A stretch of 64,000 nt of DNA from an uncultured Chloroflexia bacterium (GTDB taxonomy: Bacteria > Chloroflexota > Limnocylindria > Limnocylindrales > CSP1-4): contig CAWFXA010000003.1 of assembly GCA_963819655.1 (NCBI GenBank), positions 160,001 to 224,000 on the forward strand. Reading direction: 5' to 3'. A model generated the notes under the pieces. That model did no database searches, was not told the origin of the DNA, and was given only the letters and a program-made list of their open reading frames with translations. Numbering within the stretch: the first letter of the stretch is position 1; each line of letters starts with the position of its first letter. Shown here piece by piece: positions 24,157 through 44,799 of the stretch. The translations under genes and the position numbers were made by a program.

Positions 24157-26580
24157 ATGACAGACGTACTCGACGCCCCGGCGACCACTCCGCTCGGCCA
24201 GCCGATCAAGCGCACGGAGGACCCACGCTTCATCACCGGCAAGGGCCGCTACCTCGACGACATCAAGCTGCAGTCGATGACCCACCTGGCCATCCTGCGC
24301 AGCCCGTACGCTCACGCCAACATCCGCTCGATCGACACGAGCACGGCCAAGTCGATGCCCGGCGTGCACGCGGTCTTCGTCGGCGCCGACATCCCGTACA
24401 ACCCGCTGCCGATGGCCTGGCCGGCCGGGGGCAGTGCCGGGATCACCAACAACATCAACACGCCGCGCGTGCTGGCCACCGACTCGGTCAAGTGGACCGG
24501 CGAGGGTGTCGCGGCCGTCGTGGCCGAGACGCCCGAGCAGGCGCTCGATGCCCTCGAGGCGATCGACGTCGATTGGGAGCCATTGCCCGCGGTCGTCGAC
24601 TCCGAGGCGGCCATCAAGGACGGCGCCCCGCAACTCCACGAGAACGCCCCGAACAACATCGTGTTCGAGTGGTCGGTCGGCGACAAGGACGGCACCGCCG
24701 CGGCCATCGAAGGCGCCGAGGTCGTCGTTAAGCAGCGCCTCGTGAACCAGCGGCTCATCCCGAATCCGATGGAGACCCGGGGCGACATCGGCTGGTACAA
24801 CCCAGGCACCGATGAGTACACGGTCTGGATGTCGAGCCAGACGCCGCACATCCAGCGGCTGCTCCTGGCGGCGTTCGTGACCGGCATCCCGGAGCACAAG
24901 ATCCGCTGTATCAGCCCCGACGTCGGCGGTGCCTTCGGCACCAAGATCTTCACCTATGCAGACATGCCGCTCGTGATGTTCGCGAGCAAGGCGATCGGCG
25001 GCCGGCCCGTCAAATGGGTCGAGGGCCGCCGCGAGAACTACCAATCGACCATCCACGGTCGCGACCACATCACGTACGTCGAGATCGCCGGCAAGCGTGA
25101 CGGCGAGGTCACCGGTGTCCGCGTCAAGACCTACGCCAACCTCGGCGGCCGTCTCTCGACGATCGGCCCGGGCATCCCCACGACCCTCTACGCCCGCGTC
25201 CTGTCGGGCTGCTACAAGATCCCGAACGTCTACGCCGAGGTGACCGGCGTCTACACGAACACTGTGTTCGTCGACGCCTACCGCGGAGCCGGCCGGCCCG
25301 AGGCGACCTACGTCATCGAGCGGGCGATGGACCTGTTCGCGGCAGAGATCGGCATGGATCGGGCCGAGGTGCGCCGTCGCAACTTCATCCCGAAGGACCA
25401 GTTCCCGTACGAGAACCCGTCGGGTCTCGGCACGGCCAGTGGCGGCGCCAAGATCTACATCGACTCCGGCGACTATGAGCCAGCCATGGACAAGGCCCTA
25501 GGCATGGTCGATTACGCGGCGCTCCCTGCGCAGAAGGCCGATGCACGAGACCGCGGCAAGCTCCTCGGCGTCGGGCTAAGCACCTACATCGAGGTGTGCG
25601 GCGTCGCCCCGTCCAAGTGGATCGGTGCTGTCGGCGAGGGCTGGGGTGCGGCGATGTGGGAATCGGCCAACATCCGCGTCCACCTGACCGGCAAGGTCGT
25701 CGTCACGGTCGGCACCCAGCCGCAAGGCCAGGGCCACGAGACGACGTACGCCCAGGTCGTCGCCGCGGAGCTCGGCGTGCCGATGGCGGATGTCGTCGTC
25801 CAGCACTCGGACACACTGGGCACGCCATTCGGTTACGGCTCGTACGGCAGCCGCACGTCGTCGGTCGGCATGACCGCGGCGATCAAGGCTGCGGACAAGA
25901 TCAAGGACAAAGCGCGTCGCTATGCGGCTCACATGCTGGAGGCGTCGCCGGACGATATCGAGATCGACGGCGCCGAATACCGGGTCAAGGGTTCGCCCGA
26001 CCGCAAGAAGACATTCCAGGAGATCGCGTTCGCGCTCGACCTCGCGTTCGACGCGCCCGATGGTATGGAGCCCTATCTCGACGAGACGGCCTACTACGAC
26101 ACCCCGAACTGCACGTGGCCGTTCGGGACGCACATCGCGACCGTCGAGATCGACGAGGAGACCGGCGTCGTGGATCTTGTCCGCTACGTTGCGGTTGACG
26201 ACGTCGGCAACAAGATCAACCCGATGATCGTCGACGGCCAACTCCACGGCGGCATCGCCCAGGGGGTCGGCCAGGCGCTCTGGGAGGGCGCCGTCTACAG
26301 CGATGACGGTCAGCTGCTGACCGGCTCGATGATGGACTACGCGCTGCCGAAGGCTGCGATGCTCCCGAACTTCGAGCTTGACCAGACTGTCACGCCGTCG
26401 CCGGTGAACCCGCTCGGGGTCAAGGGCGTCGGCGAGGCCGGCGCGATCGCGTCGACGGCCGCGGTGGCCAACGCCGTGGTCGACGCGTTGAGCGCCTATG
26501 GGATCCGCCACCTCGACATGCCGTACACGCCGCAGAAGCTGTGGTCGGCGATCCAGTCGGCGAAGGGAGGCCAGGCATGA
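24157..26580 (+). CDS. coxL: Xanthine dehydrogenase-family molybdopterin large subunit, form II CoxL-like
   Basis: Active-site loop AYRGAGR, VGGAFG.K, QGQGHET, KGVGE. Confidence 0.9.
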   Translation: MTDVLDAPATTPLGQPIKRTEDPRFITGKGRYLDDIKLQSMTHLAILRSPYAHANIRSIDTSTAKSMPGVHAVFVGADIPYNPLPMAWPAGGSAGITNNINTPRVLATDSVKWTGEGVAAVVAETPEQALDALEAIDVDWEPLPAVVDSEAAIKDGAPQLHENAPNNIVFEWSVGDKDGTAAAIEGAEVVVKQRLVNQRLIPNPMETRGDIGWYNPGTDEYTVWMSSQTPHIQRLLLAAFVTGIPEHKIRCISPDVGGAFGTKIFTYADMPLVMFASKAIGGRPVKWVEGRRENYQSTIHGRDHITYVEIAGKRDGEVTGVRVKTYANLGGRLSTIGPGIPTTLYARVLSGCYKIPNVYAEVTGVYTNTVFVDAYRGAGRPEATYVIERAMDLFAAEIGMDRAEVRRRNFIPKDQFPYENPSGLGTASGGAKIYIDSGDYEPAMDKALGMVDYAALPAQKADARDRGKLLGVGLSTYIEVCGVAPSKWIGAVGEGWGAAMWESANIRVHLTGKVVVTVGTQPQGQGHETTYAQVVAAELGVPMADVVVQHSDTLGTPFGYGSYGSRTSSVGMTAAIKAADKIKDKARRYAAHMLEASPDDIEIDGAEYRVKGSPDRKKTFQEIAFALDLAFDAPDGMEPYLDETAYYDTPNCTWPFGTHIATVEIDEETGVVDLVRYVAVDDVGNKINPMIVDGQLHGGIAQGVGQALWEGAVYSDDGQLLTGSMMDYALPKAAMLPNFELDQTVTPSPVNPLGVKGVGEAGAIASTAAVANAVVDALSAYGIRHLDMPYTPQKLWSAIQSAKGGQA

Positions 26581-31173: not shown

Positions 31174-31677
31174 TCAGTAGTTGGGTTCCAGGCCCAGGGC
31201 CTTTCGCAGGATCTCCGCTTTGTCTGCCGCAGCGTCGGCCGCATCGTTGGCGGCCGCTGACAAGGAGATGGCCTCGGCGGGGCTATCGGCACGCGACGCC
31301 GCACGTGCTCGCTGCTGGAACGCGGTGTCGGCCTTGATGAGTGTCGTCGCAGCGGCCTGGACCTCAGGCGGAAATGCAATCTCCTTGACGCCATCGAGGA
31401 ATGTCGCGTCCGCCTCCGCGATCAATGCCCAATAGCGCTGGTGGTCCTTGAGTGACGCCCGAGGGTCGTAGAGCTCGTCGGCCCGCTCGATCGCGGCGTT
31501 GTAGGGCTCCGCGATGGCGGAATACGTCGCAGCGGCCTGTTCGAGCGTGAGGGATACGCCCTGGGACCCTGAAGGCACCACACTCGCTGTCACCGAGGGC
31601 GTCACTTGAGCCCGAGGGGCAGGAACGCACCCCAGCACCAGGAGCGCCAAGAAGACCACCGCACCTAGGTGGGCCAT
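31174..31677 (-). CDS. Helical lipoprotein
   Basis: Lipobox LVLGC, Ala-rich helices; 40 bp downstream of the dynamin gene. Confidence 0.65.
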   Translation of the reverse strand: MAHLGAVVFLALLVLGCVPAPRAQVTPSVTASVVPSGSQGVSLTLEQAAATYSAIAEPYNAAIERADELYDPRASLKDHQRYWALIAEADATFLDGVKEIAFPPEVQAAATTLIKADTAFQQRARAASRADSPAEAISLSAAANDAADAAADKAEILRKALGLEPNY

Positions 31678-31717
31678 CAGACCCTCTAAGCGTTGGTTGC
31701 GCGGTGGCTGGACAGCG

Positions 31718-33188
31718 TCACTGGGCGGCAGCGTGGATCTCCTCATAGGCGCGGCTGACGATCTCGGCCGCCTCGATCGTACGGCGGTCGCTCAACGGGT
31801 TGCCGGCCCGGCCGCGCCAGCGCTCGACACCCGCCAGAGCCGCGACGCGGACCTCGTCCGGGGACGCGCCGGCCGGCAGTCCGGCCCGCTCGGCATCCCG
31901 CCCCGACCCCCACAGCCGGCCGACCTCATCTCGCTCACTCGCGGCGAGCTCGAGATGGCCGGCGAGCACGAGATGCTGCAGCCGAAGGAGCGCCAGGGCG
32001 CCCGACGACGCCTCCAATCGATCGATCGCCTCCGTGACGTTCGCCGAGCCCGCAATGCCATCCCGTCCAAGCTTCGTCCCGATCGCCCGGAGCGCGACCA
32101 GCGCGGACCTCGCCTTCAGCAGGGTCGCCCGATCGCCGTATGCCTCGGCCAGCACCCGCTGCAAAGCGCGGATCCCGGACTGCTCCAGCAACGCCTCTGA
32201 CAATGCGGTCGCGCTCCGCACGCTCCCATCCGAGATCAGCCGGACCGCCAGGCGCACCCCATACAACCCGAGCCGGGCCAGCAGGTCCTCGCGGATCTCC
32301 TCGCCCAGCGGGTTGCGTTCCGGGTCGCGGAAACGCTCGACCGACGTCAACAAGTGATCCCGCGCGTCGGGCTCGAGCCGGACGAGCGCGCGCAGCCAGT
32401 CGAACTGTTCCTGGCGCAGCGTCGCGCCCGTCTCGGCGAGCAGGCCCGCCACGGGGAGCACGCCCGACGCGAGCTCGCGAACGCGGGGATCGGTCGCATA
32501 CCGTTCCGCGATCGACCGCGCCGAATCGAGCGCGTCCGGCCGTGCCGCGCCGATCTCGTCGGCGCGTGACAGCACCACGACCGCGTTGACCGGCGACGCC
32601 TGCGCGATCGAGTGGTCCATGAACGCCTCGAGGAAGCGCGCGTCGCCATGATGCAGATGGCGCATCAGGTAGACGACTGCGTCAGCCTCGGCCGGGCTGT
32701 CGACTCCCGCATCGAGCAACGAGGCGGTCGTGCGCATCGACGCCCGTTCGTCGGTCGAGCCGAGCCCCGGCGTATCGATCAGTGTCATCGACTCGAGCTT
32801 GGCCGATGGCCAGCCGACCTCGATGCGTTCGATCTCTTCGACTTCGCGCGTTCCGAGGTCGATCAGCTAGCTCGCCGTCCCGCCGTGTGAACTCGAGATC
32901 GGCGTGGCCCTCGGGCCGCAGGTCGGCGGTCACCCGATACCCGAGCCCGTGCCGGTACCACGTCACGATCCGGGTGCACTCCCCGGCGTCGGTGGCAGCC
33001 AGGCGCTCACCGACCAACGCGTTGAGCAGAGTCGACTTGCCGGCCTTCACGCGACCGGCGATCGCGACGCGGAGCGGTTCATCGAGGCGTCGAACGACGG
33101 CATCGACGGCCGCGGCCTGATCGGTCCCCCGGGCGACTCCCCGGGCCAACTCGGCGATCGCGCGGACCTCGGTCGCGAGATCGGTCAT
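31718..33188 (-). CDS. Bacterial dynamin-like GTPase, IniC-like (+1 frameshift near 32868)
   Basis: GRVKAGKSTLLNAL (G1), ECT (G2), DTPG (G3), SRADE (G4); split over ORFs 32682..33188 and 31718..32788. Confidence 0.85.
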
Positions 33189-33198
33189 CCGCGTCCGC

Positions 33199-35002
33199 CT
33201 ACGAAGGGAGGTCGAAACAGTTGCCGGTGTTCTGGATGACCGAGTGGTCGTGCCGCGCGACGAGGACGCACATCTGCGACGCGCCCGTGGGGCGATCGCT
33301 GACTTTGTAGCGGTCGAACGGCACCGGACCGTCGTACAGGATCCAGTTGCGGGAGTTGGCCGGCGTCCCGGCCTGGTCCGGCGGGATCGTGTCGAAGAAG
33401 AAGTGGATATGACGATCGAGAACGTCAGGCGAGAAGTTGAAGATGTCGTAGTCGACCAGATATGTGCCGCTGCTGACCGTGATGCCCGTGATCCGGGCCT
33501 GGCGACCGCCCGGGGTCGGGGTCGGCGTCGGCACGGTAGTCGGCGTCGGCGCGGCGGTCACGATCGGGCTCGGGGATGGCGTCACGGCGACGGACGGCGA
33601 AGCGGTGGGGATCGTCGCGACGGACGGTGCCGGGGACGGGGTGGCGGAGGCGCCGCCGAACATGCCGGACGAGGCCGCGACGGCGACCGCCCCGACCACT
33701 GCCATCCCGGCGATCGCCAGGCCTATGGGTAAGAGGTTCCGTGAGCCGCGGCCGCCGGGCGGCGGGGTCGGAGCGCCCGAGCCCCCCACGCCCGTTGCGG
33801 GCGTGTCCAGCGGGGGCGTCGGCGGGGACTCCTGCGGCGGCTCGGCGAGCGCGCCGGCAACGGCCGCGGTACCCGGGACCGCAACGGCCGCGACCGCAAC
33901 TGCCGCGACCCCGCCGACCTCCGTCGGCTCCGCCGCGACCCGCTGCTGCTCGGCCACGAACGCGGCGCCAAGGGCCATCGTGTGCTTCGGGTGTGCATCG
34001 ACCGCGACCGGCCGCCCGGTCGCCTCGCGCACCATCTCCTCGACGAGCGGGATCCGCGACGAGCCGCCGACGAGCAGGATCCGATCCACGTCCCCGAATC
34101 CAAAGCCGGCGCTGCGGGTCGCCCGGCCGAGTGCCTCGATCGTCTCGCGGATCCGGGGACGGATCATGTCCTCGAACTCCGCGCGCGTCAGGCGCATCTC
34201 GGTCTGCAGGCCAGGCAGGACGATCGGGATCGTCGCGTCGGTGTCCGACGACAGGGCCTCCTTGGCGCGACGACACTCGTCGCGGAGCCGGGCGATGGCG
34301 GCCATCGTCGCCGGGCTGGTTCGCATCGATCTGGACGCCCTGTGCGGTGGCGTGCTCGATCGCCCGCCGGAACAGCGCCTCATCGAAGTCGATGCCGCCG
34401 AGCCGCTCCAGCCCCTCCGGTTGACCAAGGAGCTCGAAACCCTCGTCGGTCTTGCGCAGGATCGTGGCGTCGAACGTCCCGCCACCGAAGTCGTAGACCG
34501 CCACGACCGAGCCGGACGGCACCCGCTCCTGGCGCGCGTAGTCGAGGGCGGCCGCCTCGGGCTCCGCCAGCAGCGAGACCTGGCCGATGTCGGCCTGTCG
34601 GACGGCCTGCTGGAGCAGGTCGAGCTTGTACGGCCCGTAGCTGGCCGGATGGCACAGGGCGATCGCCGCGGGCGGCTCCCCGAACTGCTGCGTGACCCGT
34701 GCGACGATCGAGCGCAGGAGGTGGGCGAGCAACGCCTCGGCTCCGTACGGGGTGCCGCCGAGGATGATCGGGGTCGGGTCGCCCAGGCGCCGCTTGAACT
34801 CGCGGCCCGTGCGCGTCGGTTCGGCGAGGGCTCGCCGCTCCGCGGCTTCGCCGACGAGGACCTCGCCGTCGGCACGCAGGAGCACGATCGACGGAATCGT
34901 CGCGGCGCGCTCGCCGAGTTGGAAGATCTCCAGTCGATCGCCGCGCGCGACCGCGGCCGCGGAGTACGTGGTCCCGAGGTCGATCCCGAGCGAGTAGGCC
35001 AT
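33199..35002 (-). CDS. Hsp70-family NBD fused to TM helix, Pro/Thr linker and extracytoplasmic domain (+1 frameshift near 34318)
   Basis: GIDLGTT, EPEAAA, YDFGGGTFD, LGGIDFD, LVGGSSRIP; no substrate-binding domain; TM LLPIGLAIAGMAVVGAVAVAA. Confidence 0.85.
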
Positions 35003-35161
35003 CAGTCCCTTCGATCGCTGGCAGGGCTCCCGAGTCTAGCGTGCGGGGCGCCGCGTGGGACGACCGATGAGACGTCGCGGCCGTCGTCGCGCGGCGCACG
35101 GGACACGTTCAGCGTGACGCCGGACGGTACACTCGCGGGCCGGAAGGAGGGACACACGCCG

Positions 35162-36966
35162 ATGCCGGCTGGGGTCATGGTCGCGCCCGCGACGGAGCAG
35201 CTCGATGCTGTCGTCGGCGACGTCCGCTCGATCGCTCGAAACCTCGATCGGGACGACCTTGCCGACCGGCTCGACGACATCCGGCGTCGGGCCGCGCGGA
35301 CGGACACCGTGGTCTGTGTGGTCGGCGAATTCAAGAAGGGCAAGAGCGCCCTCATCAACGCGCTGCTCGGCAGTGCGGTGTGCCCCGTCGACGACGATCT
35401 CGCGACGGCTGCCGTCACGGTCGTCCGCTACGGCGAGACGCCGAGCGCCACTAGTCCACCGCCGCGAGGGTGGCGAGTCGGTCGTCGAGCAGATCGAACC
35501 GACCGCCGTGCCCGACTGGGCGCAGGAGCCGGTCGGTCGTGAGCGTCGACCCCAGGTCGACCTCGTCGAGGTGCGCATCCCGAATCCGCTTCTCGAGGGC
35601 GGTCTCACGCTCGTCGACACACCGGGTGTCGGTGGCCTGAACGCCGGGCACGCCGCAGCGACGCTGGCCTTCCTCCCATCGGCCGATGCGCTCGTGTTCG
35701 TGACCGATGCGTCGGCTGAACTGTCGGGTCCGGAGCTGGAGTTCCTGGCCAGCGCCAGGGGCGCAGGCCCGCCGGTGCTCGTCGCCGTCACCAAGATCGA
35801 CATCTACCCGGCGTGGCGTCGCATCATCGACATCGATACCGGCCATCTGCAGGCGATCGGTTTCGCCGAACGGCCCTTCGGGCTGAGCGCGGCGCTTCGT
35901 GCCCGGGCCGATGAGCGGGACGACGAGAGCGGCTACGGGGCATTCTCCGAGGCTCTTCGTGGCGACGTCGTCGAGCGCGCCCGCGTGGCGAGCCTGGGCG
36001 CGGCGGTCGGCGACCTGCGCTGGGTCCTCGGGCAGCTGCGGGAGCCCCTCGTCGCCGAGCGAACAGCACTCGAACACCCGGAGCAGGCTGCCGCGATCGC
36101 CGCGGACCTCGCGGCCGTGCGCGAGCGGCTTGCGGCGTTGCGCCGAGCGGACGCCGCGTGGTCGACCCGGCTCGACGATGAGTTCGGCACCGTGCGCACG
36201 CGCGTCGCGTTCGGTTTCCAGCGCGACATGCGGACGATCCTGCGTGACGCGCAGGCCGAGATCGAGGGCACGGATCCGTCCGGGACGTGGCCGGAACTGA
36301 GCGCAAGGATCCAGGATCACATCGCGACTGCTGTCCGGGCGGCGTTCCGTGGCGCGACGACCGGCGCAGCCGATGTCCAGGCCACCATCGCTGACCTCCT
36401 GGCCGACGAGGAGCGCGGGTCCACCGACGCCGCGCCCTCGATCACGTTCGACGTCGGCGAGTTCTGGCGCGGTGACCCGGAGTTCGAGGGTCGGACGAAG
36501 TCGCGTCTGGGAGCCGGCTACGGCGTGGTGACCGGCGCCAAGGCCGGCGTCGAGCTGCTCGGTCTCGTCGGCACGCTGCTCGGTGCGGCGATCGTCGGGC
36601 CAGCCGTGCTCGGCGTGGCTGCGCTGTACGGCGGCAAGGAGGTCCTCGACGAGCGGCGCCGTCGTCTCACCGACCGCCGCCAGCAGGCGCGGAGCTTCCT
36701 CGCCGACCTCGTCGAGGAGATCGCCTTCCAGGTCGAGGGACGGCTGACCACGGTCCTCGACGAGATGCAGCGCCAGATGCGGGCACGCTTCACCGACCGG
36801 ATCGGTGAGCTGCATCGGACCGTCGGGGCGAGTGCCACCGCGCTGGAGCGTGCAGCGAAACGCGAAGTCGCGACCGCAACGCGCGCGCCAGGAGGAAGTC
36901 GATGCGACCCTCGACGAGATCGACGCGCTCCACGAGCGGGCGCGCGGGTTGCGGCCGGTGGTCTGA
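35162..36966 (+). CDS. Bacterial dynamin-like GTPase, IniA-like (+1 frameshifts near 35452 and 36875)
   Basis: GEFKKGKSALINAL, DTPGVGG, TKID, hydrophobic paddle LLGLVGTLLGAAIVGPAVLGVAALY, coiled coils. Confidence 0.85.
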
Positions 36967-37017
36967 CCCGAGGCGCCCGACCCCGTCGAAGGCCGCTGCG
37001 TGTAGCATCCTCGGACG

Positions 37018-37948
37018 ATGACCGACCTACCCGTCGGACCGCGACGACCGCCCGGCCGGCACGCGATCGATCGACGCGCTGACCGAGGAGTTCCGCAGCC
37101 GCGACTACATCACGGACCGCTCACTCGCGACCGCCGTGTTCCTTGCGTTGGAGCTCGGCCGCCCGCTGCTGCTCGAGGGAGAGGCCGGCGTCGGCAAGAC
37201 GGAGCTCGCCAAGGTCCTCGCGGCGTCACTCGGTGCGCGCCTGATCCGGCTGCAGTGCTACGAAGGCTTGGACGTCAACACGGCCGTCTACGAATGGAAC
37301 TACCCGCGCCAGATGCTGGAGATCCGGCTGCTCGAGGCGCGCGGCCAGGCCGAGCACGCCAGCGCCCACGACATCTTCGGGTCGGACTTCCTGATCCGCC
37401 GGCCGTTGCTGCAGGCGCTCGAGAGCGACGACGGCGTCGCGCCCGTCCTCCTGATCGACGAGATCGACCGGGCCGACGAGGAGTTCGAGGCGTACCTGCT
37501 CGAGATCCTGTCGGACTTCCAGGTCACGGTGCCGGAGATCGGCACGATCCGTGCCGAGAAGCCGCCGCGCGTGATCCTGACGTCGAACCGGACGCGCGAG
37601 GTCCACGACGCGCTCAAGCGCCGCTGTCTCTACCACTGGATCGACTATCCGACGGCCCAGAAGGAATACGAGATCGTGCTTGCGCGCGTTCCGGAGTCGC
37701 CGGAGCGCCTGGCGCGCGAGGTCGTCGGTTTCGTGCATCGACTGCGTGAGGCCGATCTGACCAAGGTCCCGGGCATCGCCGAGACGCTCGACTGGGCAGC
37801 CGCCTTGCTGTCGCTCGGCGCCCGTGAGCTCCGTCCCGACCTGGTCGACGAGACGCTCGGTGTCGTCCTCAAGTACGAGGAGGACATCCGCCACGTGCGC
37901 GGCGAACAGGCTGCCCGGATGCTCTCGGAGATCGCCGCTCGGGGCTAG
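37018..37948 (+). CDS. coxD: MoxR-family AAA+ ATPase CoxD (probable +1 frameshift in the 5' end)
   Basis: GEAGVGKT, RLQCYEG, LLIDEIDRADEEFEA, HDALKRRC. Confidence 0.88.
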
Positions 37949-37976
37949 CGACAGTAGCCAGGAGACAGAACGCCCG

Positions 37977-40154
37977 ATGACCTTCCCGGTCCAGGTCGGA
38001 CCGTCGACGATCACGATCAACCGCGACGACCGCGTCCTCGTCTCCCAGCCCGACGCGAGGGTGCTCGGCGAGTCAGACGGCTTCTTCACGCGCGACACGC
38101 GTTTCATCTCGGGCTACGACATGTGGATCAACGGGCGACGGCCGATCCTCCTCGCGTCGGGGCCCATCCAGTTCTTCTCGTCGCGGTTCGAGTTCACGAA
38201 CGAGGCGTCGGTCGATGCGGATGGCCCGATCGAACGCCAATCGCTCGCGCTGCGGATCGACCGGACCGTGGCGGATGCGGTGCACGAGGACATCGACCTC
38301 ACGAACTATGCACGCCGACCCGTGCGACTGACGATCGAGGTCGCGATCCTGTCGGACTTCGCCGACATCTTCGACGTGAAGGCGGGGCGGATCCTCCGGC
38401 GTGGCGAGGTCAACTCGCGCTGGTTCCGCTCCCGCGGTGAGCTCCGCACGACCTACGTGAACCGCGATTTCCGTCGGGACCTCGTCGTCGCGGTGGAGCG
38501 CGCCGGCTCGACCCCCCAGTTCGCCAACGGTCGCCTGGTCTTCGTCGCGAACATCCCTCCGAAAGGGACGTGGCACACCTGCCTGAAGTGGCTGCCGGTG
38601 ACCGGCGCGCACCGCCGGCCCCTCACACTGGCGTGCAACGCTGTCGATGCGCCGCTGCGCAAGATCGGTCGGACCACGCTGCCGAACGTCGCGATCCAGA
38701 CGCCGAACCAGGTCGTCGATCGCGCCTGGGACCAGGCCGTGCGCGATCTCGAGTCGTTGCGTCTCGAGGACCCGACGTTCGAGCGGGGCGTGTTCATCCC
38801 GGCAGCCGGGGTGCCGTGGTTCGTGACGCTGTTCGGACGTGACTCGCTGATCGTGTCGATGCAGGGGATCTCCGGCTTCCCGGAGTTCGCGGCCGGCGCT
38901 TTGCGGCGCCTGTCGGGTTTGCAGGCCACGAGCGACGACCCCGAACGCGACATGGAGCCCGGCAAGATCCCCCATGAGATCCGGCACGGCGAGCTTGCCC
39001 AGCTCGGGATCCTGCCGTATCAGCCGTACTACGGGACGCACGACGCGACCAGCCTCTTCGTGATCGTCCTGTCCTACCTCTATCACTGGACAGGCGACGC
39101 GAGCATCCTGCGCCGGTTCCTCCCGAATGCGGAAGCGGCGATGGCCTGGATCGACCGCTACGGGGATCGTGACAGCGACGGTTTCCAGGAGTACAAGACG
39201 CGGTCGTCGCACGGGTACTACAACCAGGGCTGGAAGGACGCGGGCGACGCGATCGTCGAGGCGGATGGCACGTTGGCAGCGCTCCCGATCGCCACGTGCG
39301 AGCTGCAGGGCTACGTGTTCGACGCGAAGAACCGGATGGCGGACGTGTACGAGGCGCTCGACCGGCCGAAGGACGCGCGCCGACTCCGCCGCCAGGCGCA
39401 GCGCCTCTACGAACGCGTGAACGAGACGCTCTGGTGGGAGGAGGAGGGCACGTACTACCTCGGGCTCAATGGCCGCAAGGAACCGATCCGGAGCGTCGCC
39501 TCGAACGCCGGTCATCTCCTCCAGTCGGGGATCGTCCCACCGGAGCGCGCCGGTCGCGTCGTGAAGCGCCTGATGGCCGACGACATGTGGTCTGGCTGGG
39601 GCGTCCGGACGCTGTCGTCCGCACACCCCGCGTACAACCCGTTCTCCTATCAGACCGGCTCTGTGTGGCCACACGACAACGCGTCGATCGCCGGCGGGTT
39701 CCGCCGGTACGGCTACGCGGCCGAGGCGGCCCAGGTCGCCAAAGGCATCTTCGATGCCGCGGAACGGCTGGTCGGTCTGCGGCTCCCCGAACTGTTCTCG
39801 GGCCTCCCGCGAGTGCCGGCCAGCTTTCCTGTGCCGTACCTCGGCGCGAACGTCCCGCAGGCATGGGCGGCCGGCTCGGTCTTCCGGTTCGTCGCGATCC
39901 TGTGCGGGCTGCACGCGACCGTCGATGCCGACGGGTCCAAGCTCTATGTCAACCCGGCACTCCCGGACTGGCTGCCCGAGATCACGATCCAGAACCTGCG
40001 GTTGGGGACCGGCTCGATGGCGATCCGTTTCGCCGACGGCGACGCCGAGGTGCTCTCGAACACGTCCGGCTATCGCGTCGTGCACGGACCCGCGCCCGGG
40101 CCATTCGGCAGTCGCGGCGCGGTCGTGGCAGAGTCACCGCATGCAGGCGCCTGA
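37977..40154 (+). CDS. Amylo-alpha-1,6-glucosidase / glycogen debranching enzyme (GDE N-terminal domain + (alpha/alpha)6 barrel)
   Basis: DTRFIS, AGVPWF.TLFGRD, PGKIPHE, NQGWKDA, Y.GSVWPHDN, LPELF; AGGAG upstream. Confidence 0.9.
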   Translation: MTFPVQVGPSTITINRDDRVLVSQPDARVLGESDGFFTRDTRFISGYDMWINGRRPILLASGPIQFFSSRFEFTNEASVDADGPIERQSLALRIDRTVADAVHEDIDLTNYARRPVRLTIEVAILSDFADIFDVKAGRILRRGEVNSRWFRSRGELRTTYVNRDFRRDLVVAVERAGSTPQFANGRLVFVANIPPKGTWHTCLKWLPVTGAHRRPLTLACNAVDAPLRKIGRTTLPNVAIQTPNQVVDRAWDQAVRDLESLRLEDPTFERGVFIPAAGVPWFVTLFGRDSLIVSMQGISGFPEFAAGALRRLSGLQATSDDPERDMEPGKIPHEIRHGELAQLGILPYQPYYGTHDATSLFVIVLSYLYHWTGDASILRRFLPNAEAAMAWIDRYGDRDSDGFQEYKTRSSHGYYNQGWKDAGDAIVEADGTLAALPIATCELQGYVFDAKNRMADVYEALDRPKDARRLRRQAQRLYERVNETLWWEEEGTYYLGLNGRKEPIRSVASNAGHLLQSGIVPPERAGRVVKRLMADDMWSGWGVRTLSSAHPAYNPFSYQTGSVWPHDNASIAGGFRRYGYAAEAAQVAKGIFDAAERLVGLRLPELFSGLPRVPASFPVPYLGANVPQAWAAGSVFRFVAILCGLHATVDADGSKLYVNPALPDWLPEITIQNLRLGTGSMAIRFADGDAEVLSNTSGYRVVHGPAPGPFGSRGAVVAESPHAGA

Positions 40155-41538
40155 CGATCCAGCTGTCGTCAAGGCCCCGTGGGGCCCCGAGGTCGATGGT
40201 CGACGCCTGCTGAACGAGGCGGTCGGCTTCGGACGCGCGCTGCGCACAGCCGGCCTCCACATCGACCTCGGTGCCGCGGTCGACTTCGCGCGGGCCCTGC
40301 CGCTTGTCGATATCGGCTCGCGCGAGCAGGTCCGAGCCGCCGGCGAGACCGTGTTCGTCCGCCGACGCGACGACCGCGAGACGTACGACGTCGTCTTCGA
40401 CCGCTGGTGGCGTGCCCGCGGTCGCCGTCCCGGCGACTTCCAGGCACCGGCGCTCCAGCGCCCGGACGGCACCGAGTCCGAGGGCGACGACCCGACCGGT
40501 GAGGCCGCGCCGATGCCGGGCGACGAGACGACCTCGACGCGCCCCGACGAGTGGGGCGTGCCGATCCCCACGGCCGGTGACGACGATGACGAGGCGGGCG
40601 ACGACATCGAGGGCGTCGTGGTCGCGCCCGACGCCTACTCGCGGGGCGAGATGCTGAAACACCGCGAGTTCGACCGGATGACGCCCGCCGAGCTGCGCGA
40701 CGCGGAACGTCTGGTCGACGAGCTGGTCCCGCGGCTGGAGCAGCGCCGGACCCGTCGGTACGAGTTGCACTCGCACGGCCGCCGGCTCGCCCCGCGGGCC
40801 ATGTTCCGCCGCAACCTGGGGACCGGCGGTCAGCTCATGTCGTGGGTCTGGCGCCGACCAGTGAAGGAGCCGCGCTCGCTGGTGGTGCTGTGCGACATCT
40901 CGGGCTCGATGGAGCGCCACTCCCGGTTGCTCCTCCGCTTCATCCAGGCGCTGTCCGCCTCGAGCGAGGTTCGCGCCGAGTCATTCGTGTTCGGGACGCG
41001 GCTGACGCGCGTGACGCGGCTGTTGCGCGACAAGGACCGCGATCGGGCCCTCGCGCGGGTCAGCGATGCGGTCAACGACTGGGCGGGCGGGACCCGCATC
41101 GGTGAGAGCTTCCGGATGTTCAACCAGAGATGGGCGCGCCGCTCGCTTCGCTCGAGCGGCGTGGTGATCGTCGTGTCCGACGGGTGGGACCGGGGCGATC
41201 CGAACCTCGTGGCGACCGAGACCGCGCGCCTCCGGCGGAACTGCCACAGGCTCGTGTGGCTGAACCCGCTGGCCGGCACGCCCGGCTACCAGCCACTGGC
41301 CGGCGGGATGCGTGCGGCGTTCCCGTACATCGACGACTTCCTGCCGGCCGGCACCGTCGCGTCGCTCGAGCGGCTCGGCGAGATCCTCGGCGGCGTCCGC
41401 TCCGCCGACACGCGACAGGGCGCCGAGGCAGCAGCCCACGCGTCACTCCCCGGTGTGACCGACCTGGCCGGTGTCGGGCCGCCGACCGTCGTCGGTGGCA
41501 CGCCCACCGATCCCACCACAGCGAGGCCGATCCGATGA
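40141..41538 (+). CDS. coxE: VWA domain protein CoxE
   Basis: DISGSM MIDAS, FVFGTRLTRVT, GGTRIG, SDGWD, WLNPL. Confidence 0.9.
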   Translation: MQAPDDPAVVKAPWGPEVDGRRLLNEAVGFGRALRTAGLHIDLGAAVDFARALPLVDIGSREQVRAAGETVFVRRRDDRETYDVVFDRWWRARGRRPGDFQAPALQRPDGTESEGDDPTGEAAPMPGDETTSTRPDEWGVPIPTAGDDDDEAGDDIEGVVVAPDAYSRGEMLKHREFDRMTPAELRDAERLVDELVPRLEQRRTRRYELHSHGRRLAPRAMFRRNLGTGGQLMSWVWRRPVKEPRSLVVLCDISGSMERHSRLLLRFIQALSASSEVRAESFVFGTRLTRVTRLLRDKDRDRALARVSDAVNDWAGGTRIGESFRMFNQRWARRSLRSSGVVIVVSDGWDRGDPNLVATETARLRRNCHRLVWLNPLAGTPGYQPLAGGMRAAFPYIDDFLPAGTVASLERLGEILGGVRSADTRQGAEAAAHASLPGVTDLAGVGPPTVVGGTPTDPTTARPIR

Positions 41539-42689
41539 AGGAACTGCTCGAGACGTTATCTGGCTGGCAGGGCGAGGGCATCGATGCGGGCCGCGCGGTC
41601 GTCGTTCGCACATTCGGCTCGGCCCCTCGGCCGGAGGGCGCGTCGCTGCTGTATGCGTCGGACGGTCGCATCGCGGGGTCGGTGAGCGGCGGCTGTGTCG
41701 AGGGCGCAGCCGCAGAACAGATCGAGCATGCCCGTGTGACCGGCAACGCCCGCGTCATCCGCTACGGCATCAGCGACGAGCAGGCGTGGGATGTGGGGCT
41801 CGCCTGCGGGGGCACCATCGACGTCCTGGTCCAGCCCGCGGTGCCCACCGCCGCTGTCGCGGCGGCCACTGCATCGCTCGGTGCAGGCGGCCACGGTGCC
41901 GCCGTCGTCACGCCGCTCCCCGCCGACTCCCCACCGGCCGAAGGCGGTCCGCACGAGCCGGGGGAGGGGGCGGCGCCCGAGTCGCCCCTGGTGGTCCATG
42001 AGGATGGCCGTCTTGAGGGCACGCTCGGCGATCCGGCCCTCGATGGAGCCCTGGTCGACGGCGCGCTCGACGCGTTGCGGCGCGGCCAGTCGCGCACGAT
42101 GGAGCTCGGTGAACGATCGCTCTTCGTCGAAGTGTTCCCGGTCCGGCCACGGCTCGTGGTGGTCGGCGCGGTCGAGGTGGCCCGCTCGCTGGTCCGGCTG
42201 GCGAAGGAGCTCGGGTTCGAGACCGTCGTCATCGACGGTCGGGCGTCGTTCGCGACCCCCGAGCGGTTCCCGGACGTCGACCGACTCGTCGTCGGCTGGC
42301 CCGACGAGGTCGCCGATGAGATCGGCCTCGGACCCAATGACGCCGTGGCCGTGCTGACCCACGATGTGAAGTTCGACGAACCGGCGATCGTGGAAGCGCT
42401 CAAGCGAGGTTGTCGCTATGTCGGGGCTGTCGGCTCGCGCAAGACCCAGGCGGATCGCCGGCAGCGTCTGCGCGATGCCGGCGTGAGCGACGAGGCGCTC
42501 GCCGAGCTGCGTGGTCCGGTCGGGCTCGACCTCGGCGGCCGGCAACCGGCCGAGACGGCGCTCGCGATCCTCGCCGAGGTGGTCGCAGAGCGCTACGGCG
42601 GGTCCGGGCGGCCGATGCGCGACCGTGCCGCCGAGGGACCCGCGGCGTCGCGGATGGCGATCGAGGGGACGCCGGTCACGGCCGGCTGA
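41535..42689 (+). CDS. xdhC: XdhC/CoxF-CoxI family Moco insertion chaperone
   Basis: GSVSGGCVEG, GLACGG, THD, YVGAVGSR, PVGLDLG..PAETA. Confidence 0.9.
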   Translation: MKELLETLSGWQGEGIDAGRAVVVRTFGSAPRPEGASLLYASDGRIAGSVSGGCVEGAAAEQIEHARVTGNARVIRYGISDEQAWDVGLACGGTIDVLVQPAVPTAAVAAATASLGAGGHGAAVVTPLPADSPPAEGGPHEPGEGAAPESPLVVHEDGRLEGTLGDPALDGALVDGALDALRRGQSRTMELGERSLFVEVFPVRPRLVVVGAVEVARSLVRLAKELGFETVVIDGRASFATPERFPDVDRLVVGWPDEVADEIGLGPNDAVAVLTHDVKFDEPAIVEALKRGCRYVGAVGSRKTQADRRQRLRDAGVSDEALAELRGPVGLDLGGRQPAETALAILAEVVAERYGGSGRPMRDRAAEGPAASRMAIEGTPVTAG

Positions 42690-42701
42690 CGGAGGGCGGC
42701 G

Positions 42702-43145
42702 ATGAGAGGCGACAGGGTCGAGGTGGTGGTCGACACCGGCGGGACGGTGCAGACATTCGAGATCGTGGCCACCCGCGCAGGCCGACGGATCGAGGTCACG
42801 ACGGCGCGCGGCGTCGTCGAGGTCACCGAGGTGACGCGCGGCGGGACGCCGGTCCGCACAGGCCGGTTCATGTCGAGCCGGCTGATCGCGCTCGTCGAGC
42901 ATCCGGCTCGGGAGGGGGATTCGACCGTCGAAGTCGTGACCCGTCGGCGGATCGGCGCGAAGGAACCAGGTGGCCGCCGCGGGCGGGCCGCCGAGAAGGC
43001 GCCCGGCCTGTTCGATCCGAGCGCGGCCGACCCAGTCGGCGCGGTCGACCCGGACGTGAGGCCGCAGCCGAGGGCTGAGGCGTCGCAGACGTGGACGACA
43101 CGGTCGCGACGGCTTGCGTCGGATGCACGCTACGACCGCGGATAG
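42702..43145 (+). CDS. Hypothetical protein (small beta-rich N-terminal domain)
   Basis: GGAGG RBS, coding-like codon usage, in the cox accessory operon. Confidence 0.6.
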   Translation: MRGDRVEVVVDTGGTVQTFEIVATRAGRRIEVTTARGVVEVTEVTRGGTPVRTGRFMSSRLIALVEHPAREGDSTVEVVTRRRIGAKEPGGRRGRAAEKAPGLFDPSAADPVGAVDPDVRPQPRAEASQTWTTRSRRLASDARYDRG

Positions 43146-43352
43146 CACCATCCGTGCCCGATTCGTGCGTCAGGCGCATGCCGCAGCGGCCGGCGCTCCG
43201 GTTTCATGCACCGACCGCCAGAATTGACGGCCGGGGCACCGGTGCGTGCCCGATCGGTGACAACCTGCATCGGACGCAGCCACTGAGAGCAGGCGGACGC
43301 GAGCCCGGAGACGACGTCCGACGCCGGTCGACGCATAGGCGAGCATCGGACG

Positions 43353-44799
43353 ATGCGGGACTCGCGTCGGGACGGATCGGGTCGCCGCGGTCGTCCTCGC
43401 GGCCGGCGCGGGCTCGCGCTTCGGCGGCGGCAAACTCCTGGCGCCGCTCGAGGGCCGGCCGATCCTCCAGCACGTGATGGACAGACTTGCTGCATCGGGG
43501 CTGGAGGACGTGGTGGTCGTCCTGGGCGACGACGCGGCCGATGTCGAACGGAGCATCGACTGGCATGGTGCCCGCCGGATCCGGAACCCCGACCCGTCGC
43601 GCGGCTTGTCGAGCTCGCTGCAGCACGGGATCGAGGCGCTGGCACCGAGCGTCGATGCAGCGCTGATCGTGCTCGCCGACCAGCCGCGCCTCCCGCCGCG
43701 CGCGATCCGGGCATTGCTCGACGCCGAGGTCGACGCGGCGCGACCGATCGTCGTGCCGGTCTACGGCGGCGACACCGGTCGCAACCCCGTCCTCCTCGGG
43801 CGGGCGGCGTTCGCGTTGGTCGCCGACGCGACCGGCGACCGCGGTCTGGGTCCGCTCATCGCGGCGAACGCGGAGCTGGTGCGGGAGATCCCTATCCGCG
43901 TCGAGGGCGGCAATCCGGATGTCGACACGCGGGCGGACCTCATCGGATTACTGGAGACTGCCTGGGCGACGCGCGTGCGGGCGAATGCGGAGCAGGTCGA
44001 TCGATTCCGCGAGGTCCCCGACGGCGCCGATTTCTACGCGCCGGTCACCGGCCTGTTCCGTGCGGACCCACGCCGCACTGACGAGCCGGTGCTCGACGCG
44101 CTGCTCCGCTTGGTCCAGCCGGGCGAGACGTGGATCGATATCGGCGCGGGCGCGGGTCGGTACGCCCTGCCGATCGCACTCCGCCTGGCGTTGTCAGGCG
44201 GCCGGGTCATCGCGCTCGACGCGTCGCACGGGATGCTCGATGCGTTGCTGGACCTGCAGACGGAGCATGGCGTGGCCGATGTCGAGGTCATCGAGGGTCG
44301 CTGGCCACCGGCGGACGGGTCGTCGCTCGACCGCTATCGGGCGGACGTCGCCCTGATCGCCCACGTCGGCTACGACATCGAGTCGATCGGGCCATTCGTC
44401 CACGCGATGGAGTCGGTCGCGCGGCGGCTGTGCGTTGCCGTCCTGATGGAACGCCAGCCGTCGTCGATCGCCGATGCGTGCTGGCCGCCGGTCCACGCCG
44501 AGGCGCGCGTCGCGTTGCCGGCCCTGCCCGACTTCGTGGAGCTGCTGGAAGCGCGCGGGCGGCAGCCCGCGATCGAGATGCTCCAGCGCGAGCCTCGGCT
44601 GTTCGCGTCTCGCGATGAGCTCGCGGGCTTCCTGCGCCGGCAGCTGTGGATCGAGCCCGGCGGTGAGGCCGACGAGCGGTTCCAGGCTGCCCTCGACGAT
44701 CTCGTCGTGGTCGACGCGCACGGCGGCGTCGGATTGCGCGGGCAGCAACCACTGCCGATCGGGATCGTGACATGGGATCCCCGCGGAGAGGCGGCGTGA
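43353..44799 (+). CDS. MocA-like molybdenum cofactor nucleotidyltransferase fused to a class I SAM methyltransferase (probable +1 frameshift just after the start)
   Basis: VVLAAGAGSRFGG.KL, LADQP, GNPDVDT; then WIDIGAGAGRY, ALDAS..ML. Confidence 0.82.

Follow-up and report, generated by a model that had tools for sequence, protein, structure and literature searches.

An Hsp70-like protein with a single predicted transmembrane helix, encoded between two dynamin-like genes in an uncultured Chloroflexia bacterium, is a candidate membrane partner of IniA/IniC-type dynamins

We analyzed a 64,000-nt stretch of DNA (the window) from an uncultured Chloroflexia bacterium (GCA_963819655.1, contig CAWFXA010000003.1, positions 160,001 to 224,000), in which a gene for an Hsp70-like protein lies on the minus strand at 33199..35002, with its stop codon at 33199-33201. 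From its N-terminus, the protein consists of an Hsp70-type nucleotide-binding domain (NBD) of ~354 aa (33940..35002), an Ala/Val/Pro-rich low-complexity linker (33745..33939), a single transmembrane (TM) helix, LLPIGLAIAGMAVVGAVAVAAS (33679..33744), a Pro/Thr/Ser-rich stalk (33511..33678) and a 103-aa C-terminal domain (CTD; 33202..33510), all encoded on the minus strand. A first interpretation made from the sequence alone (the sequence-only reading) had listed an NBD, an Ala/Pro linker, one TM helix, a Pro/Thr stalk and a ~100-aa domain, and we found every one of these parts on the minus strand between 35002 and 33199; the motifs that it quoted for the last domain were present at 33202-33510. 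The gene occupies two frames in the assembly while its orthologs are intact. It is flanked by two genes for dynamin-like GTPases, both with a Dynamin_N match: a shorter, IniC-sized one on the minus strand (31718..33188), which starts 10 nt after the stop codon of the Hsp70-like gene and loses its frame through a 1-nt insertion at 32868, and an IniA-like one (35162..36966), which is divergently oriented on the plus strand and is split by 1-nt insertions at 35452/3 and 36874/6. These flanking dynamin-like genes, which the sequence-only reading had not noted, gave the strongest clue to the function of the Hsp70-like protein.

The NBD was recognized by the Pfam HSP70 model (PF00012) in two pieces, with E-values of 3.9e-27 and 1.2e-23, and was aligned to DnaK (2v7y) over residues 3-348 (E = 1.2e-44). 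The Pfam match covered only profile positions 2-247 and 251-373 of 599, in agreement with the earlier claim that the NBD comes without a substrate domain. With the NCBIfam models the protein scored ~166-176 bits against cut-offs of 620-822 for DnaK and HscA and thus fell far below the equivalog threshold. The phosphate-1, Lys, Glu, phosphate-2 and adenosine motifs were all present. Residues D8, K70, E147, D171 and T176, which we take to correspond to the respective DnaK positions, were invariant in 20 orthologs. Lobe IB is shortened and holds the invariant REFKRRLGDPTPIILGGTPYGAE; the segment E61...E89 was likewise invariant in the 20 orthologs. When 150 family members were inspected, the phosphate-1 motif was found in 150, phosphate-2 in 149, EP.AA in 145, GG..R.P in 136 and FKR in 127, and the family signature 'FKRR.GD.TP' in 113. 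The NBD probably has ATPase activity. Since the protein has no substrate-binding domain, it cannot act as a classical chaperone, and Pfam gave no Pkinase match in it either.

We also modeled the whole protein of an ortholog from a genome of the same genus (G024). The model had a mean predicted local distance difference test score (pLDDT) of 67.7 and comprised the NBD (residues 1-374), a disordered region, a TM helix (450-467), a second disordered region and the CTD (526-625); a substrate-binding domain was absent, and only disorder, the TM helix and the CTD followed the NBD. Both the linker, whose sequence is not conserved, and the stalk were disordered in this model. In the window protein the sequence 'GGRGSRN' directly precedes the helix LLPIGLAIAGMAVVGAVAVAAS, with Arg residues on its N-terminal (cytoplasmic) side. 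We infer that the protein is single-pass, with its N-terminus inside and its C-terminus outside. One Ala/Val-rich stretch of the linker, VAAVAVAAVAVPGTAAVAGALA (33850-33935, minus strand), also reached a crude hydropathy threshold for TM segments. It has acidic flanks and is not conserved in orthologs, and the stretch is low in complexity, variable and non-helical in the ortholog model.

Named relatives of the protein belong to Chloroflexota (metagenome-assembled genomes (MAGs) labeled 'Candidatus Limnocylindrales' and 'uncultured Chloroflexia') and to many Actinomycetota. The CTD was detected by a hidden Markov model (HMM) in 113 of the 120 long matches of the first family search. Other members of the NBD-TM family carry different ectodomains, among them PD40, DUF6777, Septum_form, LytR_C and GH99. 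The constant element of the family is the NBD together with the TM segment; the ectodomain and the exact gene order vary.

The CTD had no Pfam or NCBIfam match. An exhaustive phmmer search over 1.84 billion representatives identified 539 CTD clusters at E<=1e-3, of which 351 remained at <=1e-10 and 36 at <=1e-30; this makes the CTD an unnamed family of several hundred clusters. With this number of representative clusters and with NBD E-values of 1e-23 to 4e-27, the feature is far beyond chance. Our own CTD HMM identified the domain in 345 of 352 collected proteins as 427 unique copies; 281 proteins had one copy, 53 had two, six had three, three had four and two had five, and in 305 of the 345 no more than 10 residues followed the last copy. 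The 409 near-full copies were highly conserved at a few positions (C81, 100%; C98, 99%; H34, H36, F37 and A77, 98% each; G48, 97%; H89, 95%). The Cys pair was kept in 405 of these copies and the triad of H34, H36 and H89 in 384. AlphaFold2 modeled the CTD from a 19-sequence alignment with a pLDDT of 96.2 and a predicted template modeling score of 0.89, as an FN3-like beta-sandwich of six strands. Foldseek found no PDB structure at E<=1e-3, the best being a SKICH domain at E = 0.035, and VIA-align over 48,161 chains returned FN3-type sandwiches only, the best with a Z of 6.9 and a root-mean-square deviation of 3.2 over 85 residues, which is in the 'common arrangement' range. Since these matches are only generic FN3-like ones, no specific fold relative of the CTD can be named.

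A possible distant relative was found at the level of sequence profiles. In the protein atlas only unnamed clusters matched at >=0.9, while clusters of DUF4399 (PF14347), a family without known function to our knowledge, matched at 0.81, which is below the trust level and serves as a lead only. Aligning the CTD with DUF4399 by hhalign gave a Prob of 84.3% and an E-value of 7.2e-6 over 78 columns, with only five sequences on the DUF4399 side; these came from Chloroflexota genomes, where the family was present in 5 of the 201 searched. The H-x-H and D-H motifs were in register between the two families, but the Cys pair of the CTD was missing at the corresponding positions of the DUF4399 examples. 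The Pfam DUF4399 model matched none of 19 CTD sequences even at E<=10, no DUF4399 was found in the genome to which the window belongs, and neither the CTD profile nor the DUF4399 profile found anything significant among PDB sequences. The profile alignment suggests that the CTD is remotely related to DUF4399. It is plausible, and the sequence-only reading had raised the possibility, that the CTD may be a metal-binding or disulfide-stabilised sensor.

A profile search with the last ~100 aa had been suggested as a means of finding other receptors with this domain, and it showed the CTD to be mobile. Of 144 newly listed representatives (P0209-P0352), we scanned with Pfam the 83 that were 330 aa or longer. 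Pkinase was found in 27 of the 83, HSP70 in eight, FGE-sulfatase in four (one of which also had TIR_2), Beta_helix in four and TIR_2 in two in all, whereas FHA, CHAT, Peptidase_S8 with DUF11, DUF11, PD40 and Calx-beta occurred once each and 33 representatives had no Pfam family. Six kinases were also present among the 120 long matches of the first search, with one or two CTD copies after a TM segment. The analogy to a receptor Ser/Thr kinase that had been drawn from the topology therefore held, as the CTD also ends such kinases after a TM segment. On the whole, we take the receptor-like interpretation to be partly supported. In the Ser/Thr kinases P0040, P0051, P0057, P0071 and P0081, a ~90-aa Cys/Trp module ('...CRAGPG...WW...CW...') without annotation among the listed Pfam matches lies between the two CTD copies. 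The CTD was further found at the end of proteins of the signal-peptide or lipoprotein type (P0126, P0193, P0204). Among the 144 representatives, 98 had one hydrophobic segment before the CTD (67 internal, 31 in the first 45 residues), 46, many of them fragments, had none, and none had two or more. The single hydrophobic segment, the signal- and lipoprotein-type N-termini and the Cys pair argue that the CTD is extracytoplasmic, as the sequence-only reading had suggested in calling it external. Because it ends kinases, TIR, CHAT and FHA proteins and secreted proteins, the CTD behaves as the sensor or binding module of receptor-type proteins, and we conclude that it is an undescribed mobile module. 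No other CTD copy was found in the window's own genome, where the Hsp70-like gene holds the sole one; the organism thus has no pairing with a CTD-bearing kinase.

The shorter dynamin-like protein has 493 aa in the G024 ortholog, which we take to be the size of IniC, and resembled IniA and BDLP in the G domain only. The gene upstream of the Hsp70-like gene encodes a full-length IniA homolog, whose G024 ortholog aligned with IniA (6j72) at an E-value of 6.4e-67 (residues 40-597 against 14-580). We determined how often these genes occur together at loci with flanks of at least 5 kb. All 26 Chloroflexota loci had both dynamin genes and the CTD, and 14 of 23 other loci, mostly from Actinomycetota, had both dynamin genes. 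By tblastn, which was too insensitive for this purpose, the CTD was detected in none of the 23; by HMM it was found in L051, L052 and L089, of which L089 is among those 23. A second and more diverse draw of 38 full-flank loci contained dynamin genes in 29, the CTD in 13, both in 10 and neither in six. The gap between the stop codon of the Hsp70-like gene and the start of the downstream dynamin gene was ~10-30 nt in ~20 loci, and the triad keeps identical chromosomal neighbors in many species. Pseudonocardia hydrocarbonoxydans has an NBD-TM gene that encodes 712 aa, lacks the CTD and is oriented divergently to Gly-rich ORFs and IniA-like and IniC-like genes. The cultured strain NBRC 14498 of this species has at least three paralogous NBD-TM genes (L103, L106, L117) on different contigs, with dynamin-like neighbors at L103 and L106.

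We then modeled the shorter dynamin (20-row alignment) in complex with residues 1-372 of the NBD (20-row alignment). The interface score ipSAE was 0.80, 0.81 and 0.82 in three runs (median 0.81), compared with 0.00 for the best of three controls. Of 157 solved complexes, 116 attain the pass mark for this score, as do 2 of 215 mismatched pairs; since we supplied our own alignments, these counts apply here only approximately. At least 96% of the contacts agreed between runs, and the partner pLDDT was at least 87. In the model, residues 371-396 and 451-489 of the dynamin, its conserved C-terminal helices, pack on NBD residues 58-85, 123-126, 194-212 and 225-240, and the interface lies on lobes IB and IIB. 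Residues 58-85 are the invariant, family-specific segment of lobe IB, where residues 61-86 had a pLDDT below 50 when the protein was modeled alone. Lobes IB and IIB are the surface at which exchange factors such as BAG and GrpE bind Hsp70s; we know of no solved complex of an Hsp70 with a dynamin. The model supports, though it does not show, binding of the shorter dynamin to the NBD.

The sequence-only reading had described the NBD as intact, which the window does not bear out. The frame is broken, with residues 1 to ~229 in the ORF at 33425..35002 and the remainder in the +1 frame ORF at 33199..34875. The switch falls within CAGCCCGGCGAC, at about 34313, where a single-base insertion (34313..34313; GGG on the plus strand, CCC in the gene) splits the frame. 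Orthologs are single ORFs of 626 aa (G024), 656 aa (G020, also from the same genus), 596 aa (P0121) and 604 aa (P0122). They read DANEPATMAAIARLRDEC across the break point, with DAN[ED]PATMAAIARL in P0121 and P0122, which are near-identical database proteins. The C-terminal frame belongs to the same protein in all intact homologs, and the doubt that the two frames might encode separate proteins, raised together with the first interpretation, accordingly falls away. Both dynamin-like genes, which are split in the window, are whole in G024.

We aligned relatives' contigs from four public runs of four studies (X1, X4, X5, X6) to 31700-37100; at most 23% of the sampled words were present in any run, hence relatives' contigs only were used. 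One base fewer was found at 32868 in X1, X5 and X6, at 35452/35453 in all four runs, at 36874/36876 in X1, part of X4 and X6, and at 37033, where the start of a MoxR-type gene is broken, in X6. At 34313 one base fewer was found in X1 (depth 6.09 of 6.09) and X4 (6.71 of 9.71), and X5 did not cover the position. Elsewhere each listed contig piece had 0-1 gaps and otherwise substitutions, the exception being a 17-letter insertion near 35070-35079 (X1, X4). Only 34313 sits in a short homopolymer; two other insertion sites read C-T-A-G, and the insertions may reflect a systematic base-calling or polishing artefact. Both halves of the Hsp70-like gene were ~90-95% identical to intact orthologs and had no further damage, and the genome assembly comprises 3.49 Mb in three contigs at 91% completeness. 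Since at least five single-base insertions lie within 5.4 kb of otherwise well-conserved genes, the break in the NBD is most likely an assembly error, and the Hsp70-like gene is thus probably functional. In two publicly predicted 'proteins', P0208 (463 aa) and L006 (from G021), Hsp70-like sequence read out of frame is joined to part of the CTD and to the N-terminus of a dynamin. Such false fused architectures in the databases arise because of frameshifts in long-read MAGs; in practical terms, single-base insertions such as those in this assembly break real genes and yield false fusion proteins in public databases.

We slightly favor the view that the Hsp70-like protein, anchored in the membrane, tethers or regulates an IniA/IniC-type dynamin pair in a nucleotide-dependent way and binds an envelope or environmental ligand through its outside module. 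The Hsp70-like protein, the IniA-type dynamin and the shorter, IniC-sized dynamin-like GTPase would form a three-gene module. An Hsp70-type ATPase domain without the client-binding half would most likely serve as a nucleotide-dependent switch or tether, with its lobes IB and IIB predicted to be gripped by the shorter dynamin through the C-terminal helices of the latter. The membrane-anchored ATPase might in this way bring the dynamin pair to the membrane, keep it there or let it go. The disulfide-bearing FN3-like CTD with its His triad would bind a ligand outside, possibly a metal ion, and would position or gate the module. IniA and IniC act in membrane remodeling or repair under envelope stress and, by analogy, a similar role is likely here. 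Our analysis establishes the architecture, the distribution of the family, the gene linkage and, at the level of a model, the interface, whereas we infer the ATPase activity, the direction of signaling, the ligand and the physiological role.

Several observations weigh against a dynamin tether of this kind. Of the 81 species genomes of the genus, only 19 had the gene (7 of the 18 of high quality), and none of them had more than one copy. Nine of the 23 and nine of the 38 full-flank loci had no dynamin-like gene within 7-8 kb, and L051, L052 and L089 hold the CTD without nearby dynamin genes. The loci counted come from related genomes, which are non-independent samples, and cover several orders of two phyla. 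The modeled interface is a statement of model confidence, obtained with 20 fairly close orthologs (60-84% identity) and only for the shorter of the dynamins. The CTD would lie in the cytoplasm if the Ala/Val-rich stretch of the linker crossed the membrane, the fold match of the CTD is generic, and its link to DUF4399 is modest (Prob 84%). At 34313, moreover, run X6 (depth 27.3) had 0 contigs with the missing base, and a real strain-specific frameshift is therefore possible.

A bolder version of the same idea, which we offer as tentative, treats the protein as a transmembrane receptor with an Hsp70 ATPase module. Here a ligand bound at the His triad would send its signal via the TM helix to the NBD, whose nucleotide cycle the dynamin would drive with its C-terminal helices in the manner of an exchange factor on lobes IB/IIB, and the cycle would load or release the dynamin pair at a damaged or targeted membrane. 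In other proteins this ectodomain would serve kinase, TIR and caspase-like (CHAT) outputs, which would make it a widespread, unnamed bacterial surface sensor.

The protein could also be a stand-alone receptor, in which a CTD ligand alters the oligomeric or nucleotide state of the NBD and signals to cytoplasmic targets independently of the dynamins. This would fit the occurrence of the identical CTD at the end of Ser/Thr kinases (27 of 83) and of TIR (two), CHAT (one) and FHA (one) proteins, the variable ectodomains (PD40, DUF6777, Septum_form, LytR_C, GH99) and the members that lack nearby dynamins (9 of 23 and 9 of 38 loci). However, the protein has neither an output domain nor a known target, dynamin linkage is strong where the flanks are known, and the dynamin interface is predicted on a family-specific lobe of the NBD; we consider such a receptor unlikely.

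We regard as quite unlikely the proposal that the genes form a conflict or anti-phage module, with a dynamin pair like that of Eleos (LeoA/LeoBC) or with a GTPase-plus-HSP70 system, in which the CTD senses an invader at the surface. Both dynamins had weak partial PADLOC matches to LeoA/LeoBC (E-values of 8e-17 to 3e-6), but PADLOC gave no match for the Hsp70-like protein. The patchy distribution within the genus (19 of 81) and the CTD on TIR, CHAT and FHA proteins would suit a conflict system, while the constant chromosomal neighbors in many species speak against one. The available text of Kaur et al. 2020 (PMC7159879) describes GTPase pairs together with an HSP70 domain that lacks the peptide-binding domain. 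However, the GTPases here are of the IniA/Dynamin_N type and not DO-GTPases, and that paper does not use the term 'dynamin'. No GAP1 or effector gene, nor any further conserved gene with the triad, turned up at the locus, although no profile search for DO-GTPase or GAP1 was made.

It is likewise quite improbable that the protein is a passive anchor, whose CTD binds the wall or surface in the manner of tandem C-terminal cell-wall-binding repeats and whose NBD is a structural adaptor without regulated ATP turnover. Several traits of the CTD would be expected of such an anchor: it lies no more than 10 aa from the C-terminus in 305 of the 345 proteins, occurs in 1-5 tandem copies, has an FN3-like fold and ends secreted enzymes (Peptidase_S8, Beta_helix, FGE-sulfatase). 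On the other hand, the catalytic residues of the NBD are invariant, and the His triad, with a conservation of 94%, looks more like a specific site than a generic spacer. That the frameshift is real and the strain carries a dead gene is very unlikely: the window sequence itself is broken and X6 covers 34313 without the missing base, but at least four further single-base insertions occur in the two neighbor genes within 5.4 kb, all absent from the relatives' contigs, and the gene halves (~90-95% identical to intact orthologs) are otherwise undamaged in a genome of three contigs at 91% completeness.

IniA/IniC-type bacterial dynamins have been linked to drug tolerance, membrane repair and the release of vesicles. 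For their recruitment to the membrane and their activation there, a conserved membrane-spanning Hsp70-type ATPase that is predicted by modeling to grip one dynamin would be a concrete third component and, if true, a new use of the Hsp70 ATPase fold without a client-binding domain. Receptor kinases and membrane proteins with TIR, CHAT or FHA domains have the CTD in common, so that knowledge of its ligand would bear on many signaling proteins of Chloroflexota and Actinomycetota at once.

We compared the module with known systems. It shares with the mycobacterial IniA/IniC pair (iniBAC; IniA 6j72) a full-length IniA homolog and a shorter dynamin-like protein, and the P. hydrocarbonoxydans locus with its IniA-like and IniC-like genes and Gly-rich ORFs, of which one presumably resembles IniB, is also reminiscent of iniBAC. 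Unlike in iniBAC, an Hsp70-like gene lies here between the two dynamins and is predicted to be co-transcribed with the shorter dynamin. Neither IniB nor IniR was recognized in the flanks within the window; Gly-rich ORFs were seen only at the Pseudonocardia locus. In Mycolicibacterium smegmatis a dnaK-like gene lies next to iniR and might belong to the same family. The canonical Hsp70s DnaK and HscA and NBD-only relatives have the same NBD fold and nucleotide motifs, but the Hsp70-like protein lacks the substrate-binding domain and lid, has a shortened lobe IB with a family motif and is built like a receptor that spans the membrane. The PknB-like receptor Ser/Thr kinases of Actinomycetota and Chloroflexota have the same topology and the identical outside domain in one or two copies, whereas the cytoplasmic module here is an Hsp70-type ATPase and not a kinase.

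Bacterial dynamins are usually paired in operons, according to the available text of Liu, Noel and Low 2018 (PMC6104087). The DO-GTPase/GAP1 systems, as set out by Kaur, Burroughs, Iyer and Aravind 2020 (PMC7159879), combine paired GTPases with an HSP70 domain without the peptide-binding domain, often near a membrane; their defining components are GAP1, GASH or FNIII proteins and variable effectors. The GTPase family at our locus is instead Dynamin_N/IniA, and none of GAP1, GASH, FNIII or effectors turned up, with no profile search made for DO-GTPase or GAP1. In the cyanobacterial 'chaperone group' of bacterial dynamin-like proteins, a DnaK-domain gene lies downstream of a dynamin-like gene, as stated in the available portion of Jilly et al. 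2018 (PMC5827413). The resemblance is by description only; the phylum and gene order differ, and the description in that portion includes no membrane-spanning or ectodomain architecture. In the literature searched (articles without their supplementary files), we found no description of the module or of a role for its Hsp70-like partner, apart from two mentions in passing, one by Boot et al. and the other by Jilly et al. 2018 (PMC5827413). What is new is thus an Hsp70 ATPase in a bacterial dynamin system, an unnamed ectodomain family and a predicted interface, while Hsp70 ATPases and bacterial dynamin systems are each known.

Directly downstream of the shorter dynamin gene, a 190-aa ORF (31174-31746, minus strand) has a lipoprotein-like N-terminus ('...LVLGC...') and no Pfam match. 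On the other side, the plus strand at 37136-44799 carries genes for a MoxR-type AAA_5 protein, a GDE_N_bis/MGH1-like glycoside hydrolase, VWA_CoxE, XdhC and a MobA-like protein. We considered the MoxR and VWA genes as part of the core of the triad and rejected them, as they occur in only a subset of Chloroflexota loci, grouped with XdhC, MobA-like and Mo-enzyme genes. This run is a CoxD/E/F-like molybdoenzyme maturation cluster, and a molybdopterin oxidoreductase is encoded at 24157-26580.

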